A stretch of 41,798 nucleotides of DNA. It comes from a virus. Its lineage: Duplodnaviria > Heunggongvirae > Uroviricota > Caudoviricetes. Below, piece after piece: positions 5,014 to 16,137 of the stretch. A program made the position numbers and the translations under genes. Each line of letters opens with the position of its first letter. Position 1 is the first letter of the stretch. The DNA lies in the IMG/VR virus record IMGVR_UViG_2563366805_000010, positions 1 through 41,798 of that record. One strand, given 5' to 3'. A model generated the notes under the pieces. The model saw nothing but the letters and a program-made list of their open reading frames with translations, had not been told where the DNA came from and did not search any database.

Positions 5014-5604
5014 TTAATTATCGAAGAAAAAAACTATTCGAATATTTTCAGGGATAATATTTTTCTCTAACCACCATAATTCCAGAGCTCTGCTCTCCAG
5101 CGATTCATGAATATTTTTTAAAGCATCTACCGTATCTTCCCATTCCCGGAAAACAAAGCCTGGCATGCTTGTCCACCCACACCATGAATCGGGTTTAATA
5201 CCCTTATCAAGATCTGCCGCTTGTTTTTCTGAAATCATTCCTTTGAATGGCATTGGAGTAAGGTTGGTTCTGAACTCCCGAATTTCGGCAAGACTGACGT
5301 AACTGTGAGAATGTCCATCACACCCCCATTCTTCTGATACCTGCTTGGTGTAATCACAAGCATCGTCAGGTATACCGCGTGGTTCGGATATCTTAGGCGT
5401 TTCGTCAGCGTATGCTCTTACTCCGCAGAGTTGGGAGAATGCTGCATAATTACGAGAACTCTCTAAATCAATACGTTCAAATTCCCGTTCGCCATCGTCA
5501 TTTCCATACCATAGGTTTTTACGGAAATGATCATAATTAACCCATTTTTCTTCACCGTTAATTGAGCGTTTAACCTCAACCATCATATGAATATCGCAGC
5601 CCAT
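5014..5604 (-). CDS. Hypothetical Cys/His-rich protein (196 aa) in AT-rich cassette
   Basis: ATG preceded by AAGGA SD; segments GCDIH, CDY, GCDGHSHSY, WCGW suggest metal binding; visibly lower GC than flanking genes; no family recognised. Confidence 0.6.
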   Translation of the reverse strand: MGCDIHMMVEVKRSINGEEKWVNYDHFRKNLWYGNDDGEREFERIDLESSRNYAAFSQLCGVRAYADETPKISEPRGIPDDACDYTKQVSEEWGCDGHSHSYVSLAEIREFRTNLTPMPFKGMISEKQAADLDKGIKPDSWCGWTSMPGFVFREWEDTVDALKNIHESLESRALELWWLEKNIIPENIRIVFFFDN

Positions 5605-5643
5605 AGCTATTTCCTTTATAACTGATTGATAGTCAAAATACCG

Positions 5644-5916
5644 TTAAACTTGAGATTCACCGCAGAACGGGCAGAAACTCATTTTTACGTTGGTTTCTAG
5701 GCGGTTCAGGTTTTTAGCCATTTCGCCGTTTTTCTTTTTGGCCCGGTACGCCAGTTTGTATTTCAGCATCATAAACAGTTTGCCTTCGGAAAGAGAAAGA
5801 ACCTGATTATCCCAACCGGTATCAAAAGTGCTTTCGCTTACTTCAGCACCTTCCGGAACCTTCTCTTTCAGTCGCGCTTCGATATGAGCACCGACCTCAT
5901 TAATGCAGTTGCACAT
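5644..5916 (-). CDS. Hypothetical protein (90 aa) with terminal Cys pairs (possible zinc ribbon)
   Basis: ATG preceded by GAGGG SD; N-terminal CNC and C-terminal CPFCG; same AT-rich block as the 196-aa gene. Confidence 0.55.
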   Translation of the reverse strand: MCNCINEVGAHIEARLKEKVPEGAEVSESTFDTGWDNQVLSLSEGKLFMMLKYKLAYRAKKKNGEMAKNLNRLETNVKMSFCPFCGESQV

Positions 5917-5926
5917 CCCTTATCCC

Positions 5927-6124
5927 TCAAAATTTCGCGTCATAACCCGCTGGCGTTTCGTCAGCGTGAATGATGCCTTCGACTGGATAGCAGTTAGTGA
6001 CGCCCATTTGCTCACTCGCTGCCGCTTCACATTGCTGCTGATTGTCGATAATACCGACAACAGCGTCCTGGTAATCACCGTTCGTCATGGTGATGGTCAG
6101 CACTAATGCGTACAGGGCTCCCAT
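5927..6124 (-). CDS. Small hypothetical protein (65 aa)
   Basis: Start chosen at internal ATG that overlaps the upstream stop as ATGA; the longer 108-aa track ORF would overlap the upstream gene out of frame. Confidence 0.4.
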   Translation of the reverse strand: MGALYALVLTITMTNGDYQDAVVGIIDNQQQCEAAASEQMGVTNCYPVEGIIHADETPAGYDAKF

Positions 6125-6324
6125 CAGTGAGTCCCCGCAGGCACAAGATTTGGTTCGATGGTGCGTGAGGCATAAGGGCGTCGAATGTTGCGCAGGTTGC
6201 CCTGCGGTTCGTGCCAGTAGGTGCCGTCGCGGTAGTCGTAGGAAACCTGCCATGCTGCGCCGGTGCGGCTGTTGCGCATTACGACAGCACGACCGTTATT
6301 TGGTACTGGGTTAGCAGCTTTCAT
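6124..6324 (-). CDS. Small hypothetical protein (66 aa)
   Basis: ATG preceded by GGAGG SD; early position in the PL transcript. Confidence 0.5.
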   Translation of the reverse strand: MKAANPVPNNGRAVVMRNSRTGAAWQVSYDYRDGTYWHEPQGNLRNIRRPYASRTIEPNLVPAGTH

Positions 6325-6410
6325 GAAATAGCCTCCACGAATTCTGCGAAGCTGAGCGCTACTTCACCTTCAGCCAGACTTTCGAAATATTCCTCGTATG
6401 CCTTTTCCAT
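6321..6410 (-). CDS. Very small acidic ORF (29-31 aa)
   Basis: MEKAYEEYFESLAEGEVALSFAEFVEAIS; stop overlaps next ATG as ATGA; first ORF after the predicted PL; weak evidence. Confidence 0.2.
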   Translation of the reverse strand: MEKAYEEYFESLAEGEVALSFAEFVEAIS

Positions 6411-6490
6411 TCTCATCCCCTTGCCGTCTTCCCGGCTGCCAGAACTTTTACCCGGGCATTCGCGTTTGAATGCGTTGTTTGGATGAGCTA

Positions 6491-6554
6491 ACAATAGCTA
6501 AAGCGATTATTTGAGTCAATCGCTTAAACGATAATTTATTTAGCTAAAGCGATA
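6491..6554 (-). promoter_or_regulatory. Leftward early promoter PL with operator cluster OL
   Basis: On minus strand TTGACT-17 nt-TATTGT; overlapped and flanked by three sites with ATCGC half-sites (atagctaaagcgatt, atcgcttaaacgat, ttagctaaagcgat) matching the OR operators. Confidence 0.5.
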
Positions 6555-6652
6555 ATTTTATGATTTATAAGATTATTTATTTGATTGGGAAATGTGCGAT
6601 GAAATGATATTAGCGAAGGAATTGGGGGAATTTTAATCAGGTCAGGAACAAT

Positions 6653-6672
6653 AAAAAACCCGGCAAGCCGGG
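6653..6672 (-). terminator. Rho-independent terminator downstream of cI
   Basis: GC hairpin CCCGG-CAAG-CCGGG followed on minus strand by a T-run, directly after the cI stop; A-run on the other side could make it bidirectional. Confidence 0.6.
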
Positions 6673-6673
6673 T

Positions 6674-7366
6674 TTATGCGAAGCGCTTGTACTCTATTGA
6701 TTGTCTTAGTAGCACTTTAGCCATTACGTAGAACTGATCTTCGTCTTCTGACTCAACATACCATTTCTCGTAGATAGGGTTGTCTGAGATGACAGCAAGC
6801 CGATCTCTTTGCATCTGAAGTCTTTTGACGTGCAGAGTTTTTCCGAACACAAATACGTAAACGCCATCACCATCAAAATGAGTCACGCCAGTATCAACAA
6901 AAATTTGATCTCCTGGTGAGATGGTTCCATCCATGCTGTCGCCGTTAACAGTGATAACTTTTACATTATCTGCGGGGCGGTTTCCGAAAAGTGCGCGAGC
7001 CTGTTCAGTTGTGTATTCGATTGCTCTTATGGTTTCGATAAAATCACTGGTAACTAGCGAGCCAGGACCGGCGCTGGCCTTAACGTCAAGCACATCCACG
7101 CGGTAAACCTCATTCATAACTGGTTTAATTTGGCATAGCGTGTTTGCTTCGCGAATGCCAGATTCCAACATCTCACCTTGCCCCGTTGAAAGCCATTCAG
7201 GACGCACACCCAGAACAGATGCGATCTCTACTGTTTTTCGTGAGCCGTTCGCACCTTTAAGTAACTTATTTACGCTGGACTGAGCCATGCCTACATCTTT
7301 CGCCAGCCTAGCCTGCGTGTATCCAGCGACGTCCATTGCGTGCCCTAAGCGTTCTGAGAATCCCAT
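6674..7366 (-). CDS. cI: CI-type phage repressor (HTH + S24 LexA-like peptidase domain)
   Basis: 230 aa; N-terminal HTH (TQARLAKDVGMAQSSVNKL); C-terminal autocleavage domain with GDSM serine and KRL lysine; AAGAGG SD; divergent from cro. Confidence 0.9.
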   Translation of the reverse strand: MGFSERLGHAMDVAGYTQARLAKDVGMAQSSVNKLLKGANGSRKTVEIASVLGVRPEWLSTGQGEMLESGIREANTLCQIKPVMNEVYRVDVLDVKASAGPGSLVTSDFIETIRAIEYTTEQARALFGNRPADNVKVITVNGDSMDGTISPGDQIFVDTGVTHFDGDGVYVFVFGKTLHVKRLQMQRDRLAVISDNPIYEKWYVESEDEDQFYVMAKVLLRQSIEYKRFA

Positions 7367-7393
7367 AAAAGCCTCTTTTTAAGTCCTCTTTAA

Positions 7394-7467
7394 ATAGTAT
7401 CGCCAAGGCGATTGTTTGGCAAAGAATCGCATAGGCGATTGACAATCGCTAAAGTGATATACATAAT
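7394..7467. promoter_or_regulatory. OR region: divergent PRM and PR with three palindromic operators
   Basis: PR TTGACA (7439-7444)-17 nt-CATAAT rightward; PRM on minus strand TTGCCA-17 nt-TACTAT leftward; operators ATCGCCAAGGCGAT (7399-7412), ATCGCATAGGCGAT (7426-7439), ATCGCTAAAGTGAT (7445-7458). Confidence 0.6.
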
Positions 7468-7494
7468 CGCTTTAAACTGATAGCTGAGGTGATT

Positions 7495-7728
7495 ATGAAG
7501 AACCCCGCAGTAGAAAAAGCGATTGCCCTTGTCGGTAGTCAGAAAGAGTTAGCTAAACGCTGTGGAAAGGCTCAATCAACGATCTGTGATTGGTTGAACG
7601 GGAAGAAGCGTATTTCTCCTGTTCATGTCCCAGACCTTGTTAATGCCGTTAACGGAGAGATTCAGGCATACGAATTTCGGCCTGATCTTCCATCCATTTT
7701 TCCACATCCAAATAACCACGCCATTTAG
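7495..7728 (+). CDS. cro: Cro-like HTH repressor
   Basis: 77 aa; HTH segment QKELAKRCGKAQSTICDWLNGKK; GAGG SD; first gene of the PR transcript. Confidence 0.8.
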   Translation: MKNPAVEKAIALVGSQKELAKRCGKAQSTICDWLNGKKRISPVHVPDLVNAVNGEIQAYEFRPDLPSIFPHPNNHAI

Positions 7729-7769
7729 TCAAACCAGTGGCGTAACTCACTTTATGAGGATTATCACCC

Positions 7770-8090
7770 ATGGAGAACGCAATCGCACGAAAGTTAGACC
7801 CGCCAGTTATCAATCCGGTTGAGATCGAAAGCGTCCTGCTCAACCGGCTTGCATCAGTGGGCCAGAAGTCTTACGCCGAGCATATGGGCATCAGCGAGTC
7901 GACAGCCAGCAGGCGTAAAGCCGAAGGGCATTTCAGCACCATGGCGAAAGAGCTGGCCTTCCTGGGGATTCAGGCCGCACCACCGGAAGCAGTGCTGGTA
8001 TCGCGTGAATATCTGGCCTCAGTCGAAACGCTCGCTGATATCGGGCTGAAAGCCGAACGGGCAAGGCCGGGGCCGCTGGGGTGGGATTAA
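7770..8090 (+). CDS. cII: CII-like transcriptional activator
   Basis: 106 aa; IESVLLNRLASVGQKSYAEHMGISESTASR resembles lambda CII (IESALLNKIAMLG...); position after cro. Confidence 0.8.
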   Translation: MENAIARKLDPPVINPVEIESVLLNRLASVGQKSYAEHMGISESTASRRKAEGHFSTMAKELAFLGIQAAPPEAVLVSREYLASVETLADIGLKAERARPGPLGWD

Positions 8091-8093
8091 ACC

Positions 8094-8349
8094 ATGAACC
8101 ATATCGAATTCATCGAAAAGCATGTGCGTGAAGAACTGCTGAAGCTCGGTTTCTCTCTGGGTGTGGCTCAGGGGGGGGGCGTTCCAGGCTATCGACATGT
8201 ACAAGCGCATGAGCCAGGCAAGCAGAAAGGGGAAGATTTTTGATGATGTTTTACGGCACGCAAAACTGTGGGCGGAGAAGCAGCAGTTACCCGCTGACCG
8301 CTTTGAGAAGCGAAAAGTTAAACGGAACGCCCAGCCGGGCCTGTTCTGA
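8094..8349 (+). pseudogene. Hypothetical gene split by a G9 homopolymer frameshift
   Basis: ATG 8094 opens a 49-aa frame that passes through nine G at 8171-8179 and stops at 8241-8243; the +1 frame continues to 8349; loss of one G gives a continuous ~84-aa ORF. Confidence 0.4.
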
Positions 8350-8427
8350 AAAGGCGAAAGCCGCTGTGCACGAACACAAGCGGCTCTCAGGTGCAACAAA
8401 CGTCAGTAAATTGCGAGGTTAATTCTA

Positions 8428-8592
8428 ATGCCAAAGAGCAAAAAGTACCAGGAAAATGAGGAACGACGCCTTCAGGATTCCCCTGACGGGCTGGTGGTTG
8501 CCGCGTCAAAAAACAGGGCGTTCGCCGAACGTCTTGTTGGCGTGATCCGTCTGGCTCTCGCTACGTCGGGAGTGAAAAATGGGCGTCGTTAA
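8428..8592 (+). CDS. Small hypothetical protein (54 aa)
   Basis: Below track cutoff; ATG with GAGG upstream; 3' end overlaps the O-like gene start. Confidence 0.3.
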   Translation: MPKSKKYQENEERRLQDSPDGLVVAASKNRAFAERLVGVIRLALATSGVKNGRR

Positions 8593-9469
8593 GTTAGCAG
8601 ACTACAGGCCGCCGCTGGAGGTCGTGGAGCATCGCGTGGCGCAGCTGGAAGATGGTTTTACTCGTGTTGCTAATGAGCTTCTCGATGCTGTCATGGCATC
8701 CGGACTAAGCGAAACAGAGCTGTGTGTCGTCCTCGCTGTTTGGCGCAAGACGTACGGCTACAACAAGAAGATGGACTGGGTTAGCAATGACCAGCTTGAG
8801 CAGATGATTGCCAAGCATCACACACACTGTTCGACTGCAAAAAATCAGCTTGTTGCCAAAAAAGTCTTGGTCCAGGAGGGGCGTAGCGTGGGTATGAATA
8901 CCAGCATCATCGAGTGGAAAACAAAGATTAACGGATTCTGCAAAACATTAGCTAAACCTGCTAAGGATTCTTTAGCGGAAGTTGCTAATAAAAACTTAGC
9001 TGAAAGTGCTAAGGAAACATTAGCGGAAGGTGCTAAGGATGATGGTGAAACCTTAGCAGAATCTGCTTTTGAAACTAAGCAGGATCTGCTAACCACAAAA
9101 GACAATATACAAAAGACAATAAACAATACCCCCCTACCCCCAGAGGGGGAGTGTGTCGGGCAGGAAGAAAAACCTGTCACAAAGAAAACTCAGATCGACT
9201 ACCAGGCGGTGCTGTCTGCATACAACACCACCCTGGGAGACCGCCTTCCCCAGGCAGAGGCACTAAACGACAAACGTCGCCGTGCTATCAAACGCCTGCT
9301 GACCGAACTGAAAGAGCCAACCGTCGAGGCGGTGGAGAATTACTTCGCCGCTTTCGCTGAGCGAGCACCAAAGTTTTACTTCGGTGAGAACGACAGAGGC
9401 TGGCGCGCCAGTTTCGATTATCTGTTGCGCTCTGACACCCTGCTGAAAACCAGGGAGAAAGCGCTATGA
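8579..9469 (+). CDS. Replication initiator (lambda O-like replisome organiser)
   Basis: N-terminal EDGFTRVANELLDAVMASGLSETELCVVLAVWRKTYGYNKK typical of the phage replisome-organiser N-domain; iteron-like repeats inside the gene; followed by helicase. Confidence 0.8.
   Translation: MGVVKLADYRPPLEVVEHRVAQLEDGFTRVANELLDAVMASGLSETELCVVLAVWRKTYGYNKKMDWVSNDQLEQMIAKHHTHCSTAKNQLVAKKVLVQEGRSVGMNTSIIEWKTKINGFCKTLAKPAKDSLAEVANKNLAESAKETLAEGAKDDGETLAESAFETKQDLLTTKDNIQKTINNTPLPPEGECVGQEEKPVTKKTQIDYQAVLSAYNTTLGDRLPQAEALNDKRRRAIKRLLTELKEPTVEAVENYFAAFAERAPKFYFGENDRGWRASFDYLLRSDTLLKTREKAL
8946..9067 (+). repeat. Iteron array (putative origin) inside the O-like gene
   Basis: About five tandem ~24-bp units with core TTAGC(G/T)GAA..GCTAAGGA encoding LAExAK repeats; followed by an A-rich stretch and a CCCCC-AGAG-GGGGG hairpin at ~9129-9150. 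Confidence 0.55.
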
Positions 9470-14908: not shown

Positions 14909-15264
14909 AAATTTACGACATCACGCCGATCGGCAAGCCCCGTATGACCCGCGCCGACAAATGGAAAACACGGCCTGCGGTCATGCGTTACCGCGCATTC
15001 TGCGATGAAGCACGTCTGCGCAAAATCAATCTCCCTGAGTCCGGCGCGCATATCACCTTCGTTATGCCAATGCCTCCGAGCTGGAGCAAAAAGAAGCGTG
15101 AACAGCTCAACGGCAAGCCGCACCAGTCAAAACCAGACTGCGACAACATGCTTAAAGCACTGATGGATGCCCTGTTTGATGATGATTCCAGTGTCTGGGA
15201 TTGTCGCATTACAAAGCTATGGGGCGAGAAAGGCCAGATCATCATTCGGGAGAACGGACAATGA
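14905..15264 (+). CDS. rusA: RusA-family Holliday junction resolvase
   Basis: 119 aa; KPDCDNMLKALMDALFDD catalytic acidic cluster; ATGA coupling; nin-region position. Confidence 0.8.
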   Translation: MKIYDITPIGKPRMTRADKWKTRPAVMRYRAFCDEARLRKINLPESGAHITFVMPMPPSWSKKKREQLNGKPHQSKPDCDNMLKALMDALFDDDSSVWDCRITKLWGEKGQIIIRENGQ

Positions 15265-15944
15265 CACGCACCGATATTAACAATTACCAGAAAGCGTCTG
15301 TTGAGCGTACCAACCCGCAAAACGCCTGGGTGACGCTGGCAGCAGCACCACGCAGATCTTACCTGGGGAAATACCGCCGACTGACACCATCGCAAAGCCG
15401 TTGGGTTCGTTCGTTGCTGAACAACTGGGGCGGCATGTATGGAGGCAGCGGAATAGAACACCTTTCAGGTGGCGGTGGTATGTGGTCAATGATATTGACC
15501 GGCTGGACTGGCGAACAGCAGGAGCGGATCGCTACCGTACTGTCTGGTCTGCGTAAAATTGGCTATACCGGAGATGCGTTGTTTGAGCAGGCTAAAGCCA
15601 TCATCTGGCCGAAGAAATCACTTTCTGACCTGATCGGCAACGCCGGGGATCAAGAGGAAGCTGCATTCATGGAGGCTATCATCCTGAAGTCCTTCAAGCC
15701 GGGGAATCCCGTGTATGAGATAGGGAAGGACTATTACACCTGGAGGAAAACCATTAATGACATGGCACGGTGGATGCAATATTACTACGCGCCGTTTCTG
15801 ACCGAAAAGCAATGTATTGACCGCGTGCGCTGGTGTATTGAGTTGTTTAATTCTGCTGTCTTCTTCACGTTAAAAGATGAATTTGGCTTCGAAAATGCAA
15901 AAACTTGCGAAAAAGACTTGAAAACGAGTTTTGAAACTGCATAA
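15261..15944 (+). CDS. Putative late antiterminator (Q-like)
   Basis: 227 aa immediately upstream of the predicted late promoter and terminator and the lysis cassette; no similarity to lambda Q, call rests mainly on position. Confidence 0.5.
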   Translation: MTRTDINNYQKASVERTNPQNAWVTLAAAPRRSYLGKYRRLTPSQSRWVRSLLNNWGGMYGGSGIEHLSGGGGMWSMILTGWTGEQQERIATVLSGLRKIGYTGDALFEQAKAIIWPKKSLSDLIGNAGDQEEAAFMEAIILKSFKPGNPVYEIGKDYYTWRKTINDMARWMQYYYAPFLTEKQCIDRVRWCIELFNSAVFFTLKDEFGFENAKTCEKDLKTSFETA

Positions 15945-16062: not shown

Positions 16063-16137
16063 GGGTCAGAAGCACAGAGGTTGTGAGATCGGCTGTTAAC
16101 CGATTGGTCGAAGGTTCGAATCCTTCCTGTCCCGCCA
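16063..16137 (+). tRNA. tRNA-Asn (anticodon GTT)-like gene
   Basis: Hand-folded cloverleaf: acceptor GGGTCAG/CTGTCCC (one T-T mismatch), D-stem 3 of 4 pairs with GG in loop, anticodon stem ATCGG/CCGAT with loop CTGTTAA, 5-nt variable loop, T-arm GAAGG-TTCGAAT-CCTTC, discriminator G and encoded CCA. Confidence 0.5.

Follow-up and report, generated by a model that had tools for sequence, protein, structure and literature searches.

The stretch of viral DNA analysed here, IMG/VR record IMGVR_UViG_2563366805_000010 (41,798 nucleotides (nt); the window in what follows), is a complete prophage of 41.8 kb with lambda-type regulation. Immediately downstream of its leftward early promoter, PL, it carries a run of small open reading frames (ORFs) packed end to end. 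Three such ORFs had been picked out in a preliminary description made from the sequence. All three were recovered on the minus strand at the positions given there (Table 1), with two candidate starts for ORF1 at 6416 and 6410, and the predicted PL was recovered upstream of them together with three overlapping operator repeats of a type shared with PR. This layout points to a sigma-70 type PL with a transcription start at about 6484/6485, which would make these conserved ORFs the first genes of the PL transcript, as had been proposed.

Layout and coding capacity of the PL-proximal genes

In the preliminary description the three ORFs were chained start to stop by ATGA overlaps. This proved right for the ORF1/ORF2 junction (TCATGAAA), where ATGA was kept in 25/25 ORF1-bearing relatives. 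The ORF2/ORF3 junction (CACTGATGG) is instead a TGATG, with a single base common to the TGA stop and the ATG start; this TGATG was kept in 42 of 43 relatives, the remaining one having TAATG. The chain also proved longer than the three ORFs described. A fourth, ORF4, starts 10 nt after the ORF3 stop, with its Shine-Dalgarno (SD) sequence GAGGGATAAGGG within the gap, and is co-conserved with ORF2-ORF3 in most relatives. A purine-rich SD precedes each of ORF1-4 at about -12..-8. With its ATGA, its TGATG and its 10-nt gap, with SDs lying inside the upstream gene and with conserved junctions, the arrangement has the layout of a coupled operon and supports the proposed translational coupling.

To assess coding capacity we pooled comparisons between the window and 13-30 distinct nucleotide variants found among its IMG/VR relatives, and computed the ratio of non-synonymous to synonymous polymorphism (pN/pS). 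The called frames gave low ratios (Table 1) and the two alternative frames gave ratios of 1.2-8.8. Each ORF also matched a PHROG family, and the proteins are conserved across Escherichia, Salmonella, Citrobacter, Klebsiella and Enterobacter. A lack of conserved frames in relatives had been named beforehand as the outcome that would count against the ORFs; the frames are conserved. An opposite reading, that the ORFs are chance frames in a non-coding leader and are not translated, could draw on the shortness of all three and on the fact that ORF1 is left unannotated by the Prokaryotic Genome Annotation Pipeline (PGAP) in the near-identical prophage of E. coli TOK-001. This reading is effectively refuted by the frame-specific selection (pN/pS 0.12-0.18 in the called frames against >1.2 off-frame). 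The hidden Markov model (HMM) matches, down to E = 6.5e-44, the canonical SD spacing and the conservation across genera speak against it as well, and we consider it scarcely credible. Because called-frame ratios are low where off-frame ratios are high, and because all three ORFs match PHROG families, ORF1-3 are more than chance frames; they are real protein genes under purifying selection. That they are real, co-expressed early genes we regard as very likely.

The start of ORF1 required correction. The SD sequence AAGGGG touches the first ATG (6416) and lies 6 nt ahead of the second (6410), every ORF1 homologue begins ATGGAAAAG regardless of the sequence upstream, and in one locus (L032) an in-frame TAG stands immediately before the second ATG. 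On these three grounds the functional start is the second ATG, giving a peptide of 29 amino acids (aa). A longer, 57-aa form starting at a TTG was rejected: its start lies inside the -10 hexamer, upstream of the transcription start, and it would therefore be off the PL transcript; moreover, the extension did not match the profile of the ORF1 family. Likewise, an alternative 108-aa start of ORF3 was discarded, since frame +2 gave a pN/pS of 2.81 across the ORF2 region.

ORF1 is an exact optional cassette of 86 nt between the GATGAG at the end of the PL leader (described below) and the ATG of ORF2, and it is absent from phages whose cI is 99-100% identical (L014-L021, L030). In ORF1-less relatives (L014-L031 and similar), the joining of the leader ATGAG to the ORF2 ATG creates a two-codon mini-ORF, ATG-AGA-TGA, with an ATGA overlap with ORF2. 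In the RefSeq record of TOK-001, ORF1 has no PGAP annotation despite the purifying selection on it.

Table 1. Positions of the PL-proximal genes and of the other features discussed, in window coordinates
Feature	Position	Strand	Evidence
ORF1, 29-aa acidic peptide, net charge -7	6321..6410	-	phrog_2061 E = 1e-14; pN/pS 0.12
ORF2, 66-aa basic protein, net charge +5	6124..6324	-	phrog_3722 E = 6.5e-44; GGAGG at -12..-8; pN/pS 0.18
ORF3, 65-aa acidic protein, net charge -8	5927..6124	-	PF07358 61.9 bits; phrog_1092 E = 1.9e-26; pN/pS 0.18
ORF4, 90 aa, C-terminal CxxC motif	5644..5916	-	phrog_7033 E = 7e-38; SD GAGGGATAAGGG
PL leader, ~75 nt, 3' block GCC..GATAAGGCA..GG.GA.GAG with SD	6411..6485	-	alignments of heteroimmune relatives
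Predicted PL promoter, TTGACT-17-nt spacer-TATTGT	6491..6519	-	best promoter-like site in promoter scan; overlapped by three operator repeats
OL (left operator), three copies of a 17-18-nt operator repeat, TAGCTAAAGCGAT-type	6491..6558	.	repeat families D1, D2; inverted pairs I2, I10, I14, I23
Intrinsic terminator right after the cI stop, AAACCCGGCTTGCCGGGTTT then T run	6656..6675	-	terminator scan
CI-type repressor, helix-turn-helix and S24 peptidase-like C-terminal domain	6674..7366	-	phrog_4 E = 5.5e-59; CI-like phrog_6201; PGAP: XRE family regulator
Q-like antiterminator gene	~15261-15944		phrog_753 E = 1.1e-57

The surroundings are those of a lambdoid prophage. An 801-nt probe covering 5900-6700 was 100% identical to the TOK-001 prophage, which lies between kch and yciI, and the first difference between the window and the TOK-001 record was found at position 5803. 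The CI-type repressor gene defines an immunity region to the right of PL, the terminator behind it separates the cI transcript from PL, and the OL-type operator repeat recurs three to four times at PR (7396-7474). The lambda-type regulatory region comprises CI, Cro, CII, replication protein O, DnaB, NinB, RusA, the Q-like antiterminator, a tRNA and lysis genes, and the same window also carries baseplate-type contractile tail genes. Further downstream the left operon encodes an ExoX-like exonuclease, a Sak4-like annealase and a Dam methylase. The nearest named phages, Citrobacter phage Omnitron and Salmonella phage SW-37, are both unannotated. Elsewhere in the window (8094-8349), an 84-aa gene is broken by a run of nine G at 8171-8179 and reads as two ORFs, 8094..8243 and 8161..8349; its orthologue in E. 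coli 730V1 has eight G and is intact (L002 1353..1607). The split may reflect an error in sequencing, a pseudogene or phase variation at a slippage-prone site.

Protein families and the pairing of ORF2 with DUF1482

The preliminary description had suggested searches for homology and structure. The former placed all three proteins in families, by PHROG and by relationship to YdfB and DUF1482, while fold searches returned generic neighbours only.

ORF1 is a truncated member of the YdfB family. Its residues 1-31 match positions 17-47 of the 54-position phrog_2061 profile, on which K-12-type YdfB scores E = 1.3e-27, and it aligns with residues 7-35 (MEKAYEEYFEGLAEGEEALSFSEF..) of the YdfB encoded by the Qin prophage of E. 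coli K-12. Like ydfB, ORF1 lies within the first few hundred bases of a repressor-controlled leftward operon of a lambdoid prophage, tightly packed with its neighbours. The Qin operon reads ydfA-ydfB-ydfC-dicF-dicB-ydfD; ORF1 opens its operon where ydfB comes second, and here there is no ydfA, ydfC, dicF or dicB. Neither is the full-length architecture of YdfB present: at 29 aa against 42, ORF1 covers only the central 29 residues and lacks both the MDFDTI N-terminus and the SSAKSNG tail, and the upstream in-frame extension does not match the phrog_2061 profile.

ORF2 matches its PHROG family over the full length (residues 4-66 on positions 2-64 of 64). The family is narrow, comprising proteins of 64-67 aa from enterobacterial prophages, with 81 close homologues, all enterobacterial, and an invariant motif MRN..TG..W.V...W.EP.GNLR. 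No relative was detected in Pfam, NCBIfam, PADLOC or the PDB. An exhaustive profile search of 1.8 billion representatives returned only small enterobacterial relatives and four long repetitive proteins, which on inspection were repeat artefacts or Sel1-like repeats and were judged non-homologous. The AlphaFold2 (AF2) model, with a predicted local distance difference test score (pLDDT) of 81, is mostly beta-strand and predicts a small SH3-like beta barrel for this protein.

ORF3 belongs to the DUF1482/YebW family: the PF07358 score compares with a gathering cut-off of 25 bits, and residues 4-59 cover profile positions 1-57 of 57. ORF3 keeps the DUF1482 motif ALVLT..NGD.Q, with A6, L7, V8, T10, G16, D17, Q19 and C32 invariant and C45 at least 90% conserved in its family. 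Comparison with YebW of E. coli K-12 (b1837) gave 33% identity over 57 residues (E = 7e-11), with the ALVL motif and both cysteines aligned. One cluster member carries the label 'YebW family'. The two genes differ in setting: ORF3 is prophage-borne, coupled to an ORF2-family gene and apparently driven from PL, whereas yebW stands alone on the chromosome beside pphA. The AF2 model of ORF3 (pLDDT 78) shows a predicted beta-beta-alpha-beta unit with only generic structural neighbours. In multicopy, yebW raises the minimum inhibitory concentrations (MICs) of gentamicin, ceftriaxone and levofloxacin 2-4 fold, and its deletion has no phenotype (PMC5857375; PMC9676061); the MIC effect was first credited to yebV (PMC5857375) and later corrected (PMC9676061). 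This was the sole functional report encountered for the family; the literature search otherwise gave nothing on DUF1482, and for YdfB it gave only descriptions as of 'unknown function'.

Of the 80 best DUF1482 loci in IMG/VR, 66 have an ORF2-family gene that abuts the DUF1482 gene upstream, with a TGATG junction in 61 and TAATG in 4, and the pairing persists where DUF1482 has diverged to 51-63% identity. The basic ORF2 protein and the acidic DUF1482 protein probably work together. The ORF2-ORF3-ORF4 block adjoins repressors that are 100%, 85%, 47%, 43%, 41% or 22% identical to that of the window, or without detectable relation to it, and therefore behaves as a module independent of immunity. 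It is always found within about 100-900 nt of the conserved PL leader.

A conserved leader in a PL operon without N

Alignment of heteroimmune prophages of Escherichia, Salmonella, Citrobacter and Klebsiella uncovered a conserved leader between PL and the first gene. Similarity starts exactly at an invariant CATCCAAACAAC, 5 nt downstream of each phage's own -10 hexamer (the heteroimmune relatives all have a -10-like hexamer placed 5 nt ahead of the conserved CATCC), and ends at the start codon of whichever cargo gene follows. Mosaic boundaries coincide with the inferred transcription start and with the first start codon. Within the leader the middle is variable, and a 3' block, GCC..GATAAGGCA..GG.GA.GAGATG, is conserved. 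The leader of the window (variant A) folds with a minimum free energy (MFE) of -26.1 kcal/mol, z = -2.7 against shuffled sequences; the other variants gave z from 0.2 to -1.8. Among 19 leader variants, RNAalifold detected no compensatory change and just three invariant pairs. On the plus strand, the site 6456-6485, comprising the first leader hairpin GCATTCGCGTTTGAATGC followed by GTTGTTTGGATG, was flagged as intrinsic-terminator-like, and it could stop antisense transcription towards the immunity region.

The position of the leader recalls the put sites of phage HK022, which like this prophage has no N; putL starts at the third base of its transcript (PMC9378689). The action of put RNAs is to suppress terminators downstream, and rpoC mutations in the zinc-binding domain block it. 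The leader likewise begins within the first bases of its transcript, running from the inferred +1 as far as about +75 (put is about 70 nt), and in relatives with HK022-like operators it replaces putL at exactly the same point. Short blocks look alike by eye, yet a covariance model of put rejects the leader. This model (R1), with 7 covarying pairs, was derived from 8 RNAs (HK022 putL and putR, HK639, phiEt88, UPF_BP1, CobraSix, S9-5 and PdC23), and its score on the leader, 2.6 bits (E about 4), was no better than random matches in the same 4.5 kb. The two stem-loops of put have no supported counterpart, the leader stems being without covariation support. In contrast to the HK022 put and lambda N-nut systems, there is no boxA or boxB, no N homologue and no second copy of the leader on the PR side. 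The leader is a positional analogue of putL and not a member of the put family. Candidate functions are a recombination linker, an initiation region in which the 5' end pairs with the SD, a Rho or antitermination signal, or some other role.

The preliminary description had reported no N-like gene in this region, and our searches agree: none of the early-left genes matched N in PHROG, Pfam or NCBIfam (ORF1-5 included), and PGAP lists none in the near-identical prophage. ORF2 is predicted to be mostly beta-strand, where an N-type protein would have an arginine-rich helix at its N-terminus. In a simple scan, the minus strand of the left operon showed no strong intrinsic terminator. Rfam reported only a tRNA for the whole window at gathering threshold, and nothing relevant on 5500-8700 at E <= 5. 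The presence of the Q-like gene and the lack of N suggest that a protein antiterminator serves late transcription only. A tRNA gene (16063-16134; tRNA-Asn by PGAP at the equivalent place in TOK-001) follows the Q-like gene, just upstream of the lysis cassette.

A pair of nut sites was also considered, on the strength of a 12-mer, CATCCAAAYAAC, followed by a hairpin on both early transcripts. It was rejected: the leader and ORF2 assort independently, and only phages that share the same cro have the PR copy, which is expected by chance. On the plus strand at 7705-7745, CATCCAAATAAC and then a hairpin ACGCCA..TGGCGT span the end of cro and mirror the start of the PL leader; since it is found only in same-cro phages, this resemblance is probably coincidental.

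A variable slot behind PL and the possible roles of its genes

The first gene after the leader differs from phage to phage. It may be YdfB-like, an ORF2 homologue, Kil, a 53-aa basic protein, membrane peptides of 35-38 aa, a 222-aa pentapeptide-repeat protein or a 209-aa protein. The most telling case is a prophage of E. coli 730V1 with a repressor and leader identical to those of the window, in which ORF1-5 are missing and Kil comes first, followed directly by a 55-aa ORF and exoX. The 66-aa product of this first gene matches phrog_294 (E = 1.6e-28) and NF008465 (103.5 bits), as do Kil/KilR-type FtsZ inhibitors. RefSeq labels it 'cell division protein FtsZ' (L002 3290-3490, NZ_CP061764.1); it is actually a Kil-type FtsZ inhibitor. 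It is of the same size class and sits in exactly the same slot as the genes described here, although ORF1-3 have no sequence similarity to Kil and matched none of the phrog_294, NF008465 and DicB profiles. The swap is the strongest support for a slot that holds host-directed small proteins, and this support is only positional.

In Klebsiella phages, ORF2 stands after two membrane peptides of 35-38 aa and directly before a gene for the nuclease inhibitor GamL. There (L006 Chronis 2100-2700; L049-L086) the same leader is followed by the two hydrophobic peptides, both unannotated, and then by the ORF2 homologue. The Chronis-type peptides consist of one beginning MIREEDK... and then a 36-aa ORF, and the deposited annotation calls ORFs in other frames there (gp41).

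Taken together, these results lead us to favour, by a modest measure, the following reading: ORF1-4 are the first cistrons of an N-less PL operon and encode coupled, dispensable, host-directed accessory proteins. Inactivation of CI would allow RNA polymerase to start at about 6484/6485. Coupled translation of ORF1-4 would follow, in advance of the ExoX/Sak4/Dam recombination genes, with terminating ribosomes re-initiating at the overlaps so that the small proteins are made together. The proteins would serve as dispensable accessory factors acting on the host cell (its physiology, division or counter-defence) and not on phage transcription.

For the last part, a host-directed accessory function, we put the chances at about even, and by analogy such a role of ORF1-3 is plausible. 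The indications are circumstantial: Kil takes the same slot in a prophage with the same repressor and leader, multicopy yebW raises MICs, and YdfB sits in the dicB/dicF division-inhibition operon of Qin (PMC5069750). Several points weigh on the other side. None of the three families has a function assigned by experiment or by homology, and the products of the genes upstream of dicF/dicB, YdfA, YdfB and YdfC, go no further in the literature than 'small proteins of unknown function' (PMC5069750). YebW shares just 33% identity with ORF3 and has only a small effect on MICs. The ORF2-DUF1482 pairing is non-obligatory, Klebsiella phages having ORF2 without DUF1482. A sequence search of the PDB gave no relative of ORF1-3; PADLOC gave no match for ORF1-3 and only weak partial ones for ORF4 and ORF5 (E 5e-4 and 1.4e-3); and NCBIfam gave none for ORF1-5. 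Transcription, translation and coupling are all read from the sequence alone. The further suggestion of the preliminary description, that such proteins are regulators or host-inhibitory peptides, is accordingly not established: the families are of 'unknown function', the folds are generic, and there is no match to a Kil, DicB or defence profile.

Other roles for the same genes have to be weighed. ORF1 might be a regulatory upstream ORF that matters through its translation and not through its peptide, opening the leader structure and handing ribosomes on to ORF2 at the ATGA overlap. In keeping with this idea, the 5' CAUCC of the leader is paired in the predicted fold with a GGAUG at the SD, the overlap is conserved, and the mini-ORF of ORF1-less relatives overlaps the ORF2 start in the same way. 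Yet the amino acids of ORF1 are strongly selected and place it in the YdfB family, ORF2 has a strong GGAGG SD of its own, ORF1 is dispensable in sibling phages, and the leader structure lacks covariation, its stability being significant only for the window's own variant. We consider such a role improbable. Still less probable, and close to untenable, is that ORF2, a basic, arginine-rich protein encoded beside the conserved leader, is an N-like antiterminator whose target would be a nut-like site there. Some phages have the leader and lack ORF2, as in 730V1 where Kil follows; others have ORF2 but not the leader directly upstream (L028, L032-L040, L045-L050); and different leader variants go with one and the same ORF2 variant. 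The 12-mer on the PR side is present only in same-cro phages, with about six such pairs expected by chance in 2.4 kb, no N-family HMM matched ORF2, and the left operon has no strong intrinsic terminators by prediction.

The proteins might also serve the prophage, through superinfection exclusion or anti-defence functions expressed from PL, and not through inhibition of host growth. Slots in the early-left region of lambdoid phages often hold exclusion or anti-defence functions such as Ral, Gam and SieB; in keeping with this, the slot just after PL is hypervariable in cargo and the Klebsiella ORF2 lies directly beside the GamL gene. Against it stand the lack of a match to any PADLOC defence profile, the lack of homologues of known anti-defence proteins, and the repression of PL in the lysogen, which argues against a function in the prophage state. 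We judge this possibility unlikely, though it deserves more weight than either role discussed in the preceding paragraph. Finally, a bolder proposal is that the leader, shared by heteroimmune lambdoid prophages without N, is a cis-acting RNA not described before, working as a processive antiterminator or as an attenuator of Rho or translation type, that licenses the hypervariable cargo slot, with ORF2-DUF1482 as a two-protein module for manipulation of the host; we offer it as a long shot.

The preferred reading, coupled accessory proteins encoded by the first cistrons of the PL operon, describes an arrangement that is real but ordinary: catalogued, uncharacterised small genes of the lambdoid early-left accessory region in a compact coupled layout. 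Three details of the preliminary description are corrected: where ORF1 starts, the form of the second junction and how far the chain extends. What the analysis adds is the proof of coding for ORF1-3, the links of ORF1 to YdfB and of ORF3 to YebW, the ORF2-DUF1482 pair, the exchange of ORF1-5 for Kil and the conserved PL leader.

In temperate phages the early-left accessory regions form a reservoir of small proteins directed at the host, among them Kil, DicB, CIII, Gam and Ral. The coupling of ORF2 with DUF1482/YebW is a conserved pairing in hundreds of enterobacterial prophages, so that two families of 'unknown function', one of them with a member in K-12, gain a defined genetic context. The analysis also flags a 29-aa YdfB-type gene that PGAP missed in the near-identical TOK-001 prophage. 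Lastly, a role for the PL leader could explain how lambdoid prophages without N run their early operons.

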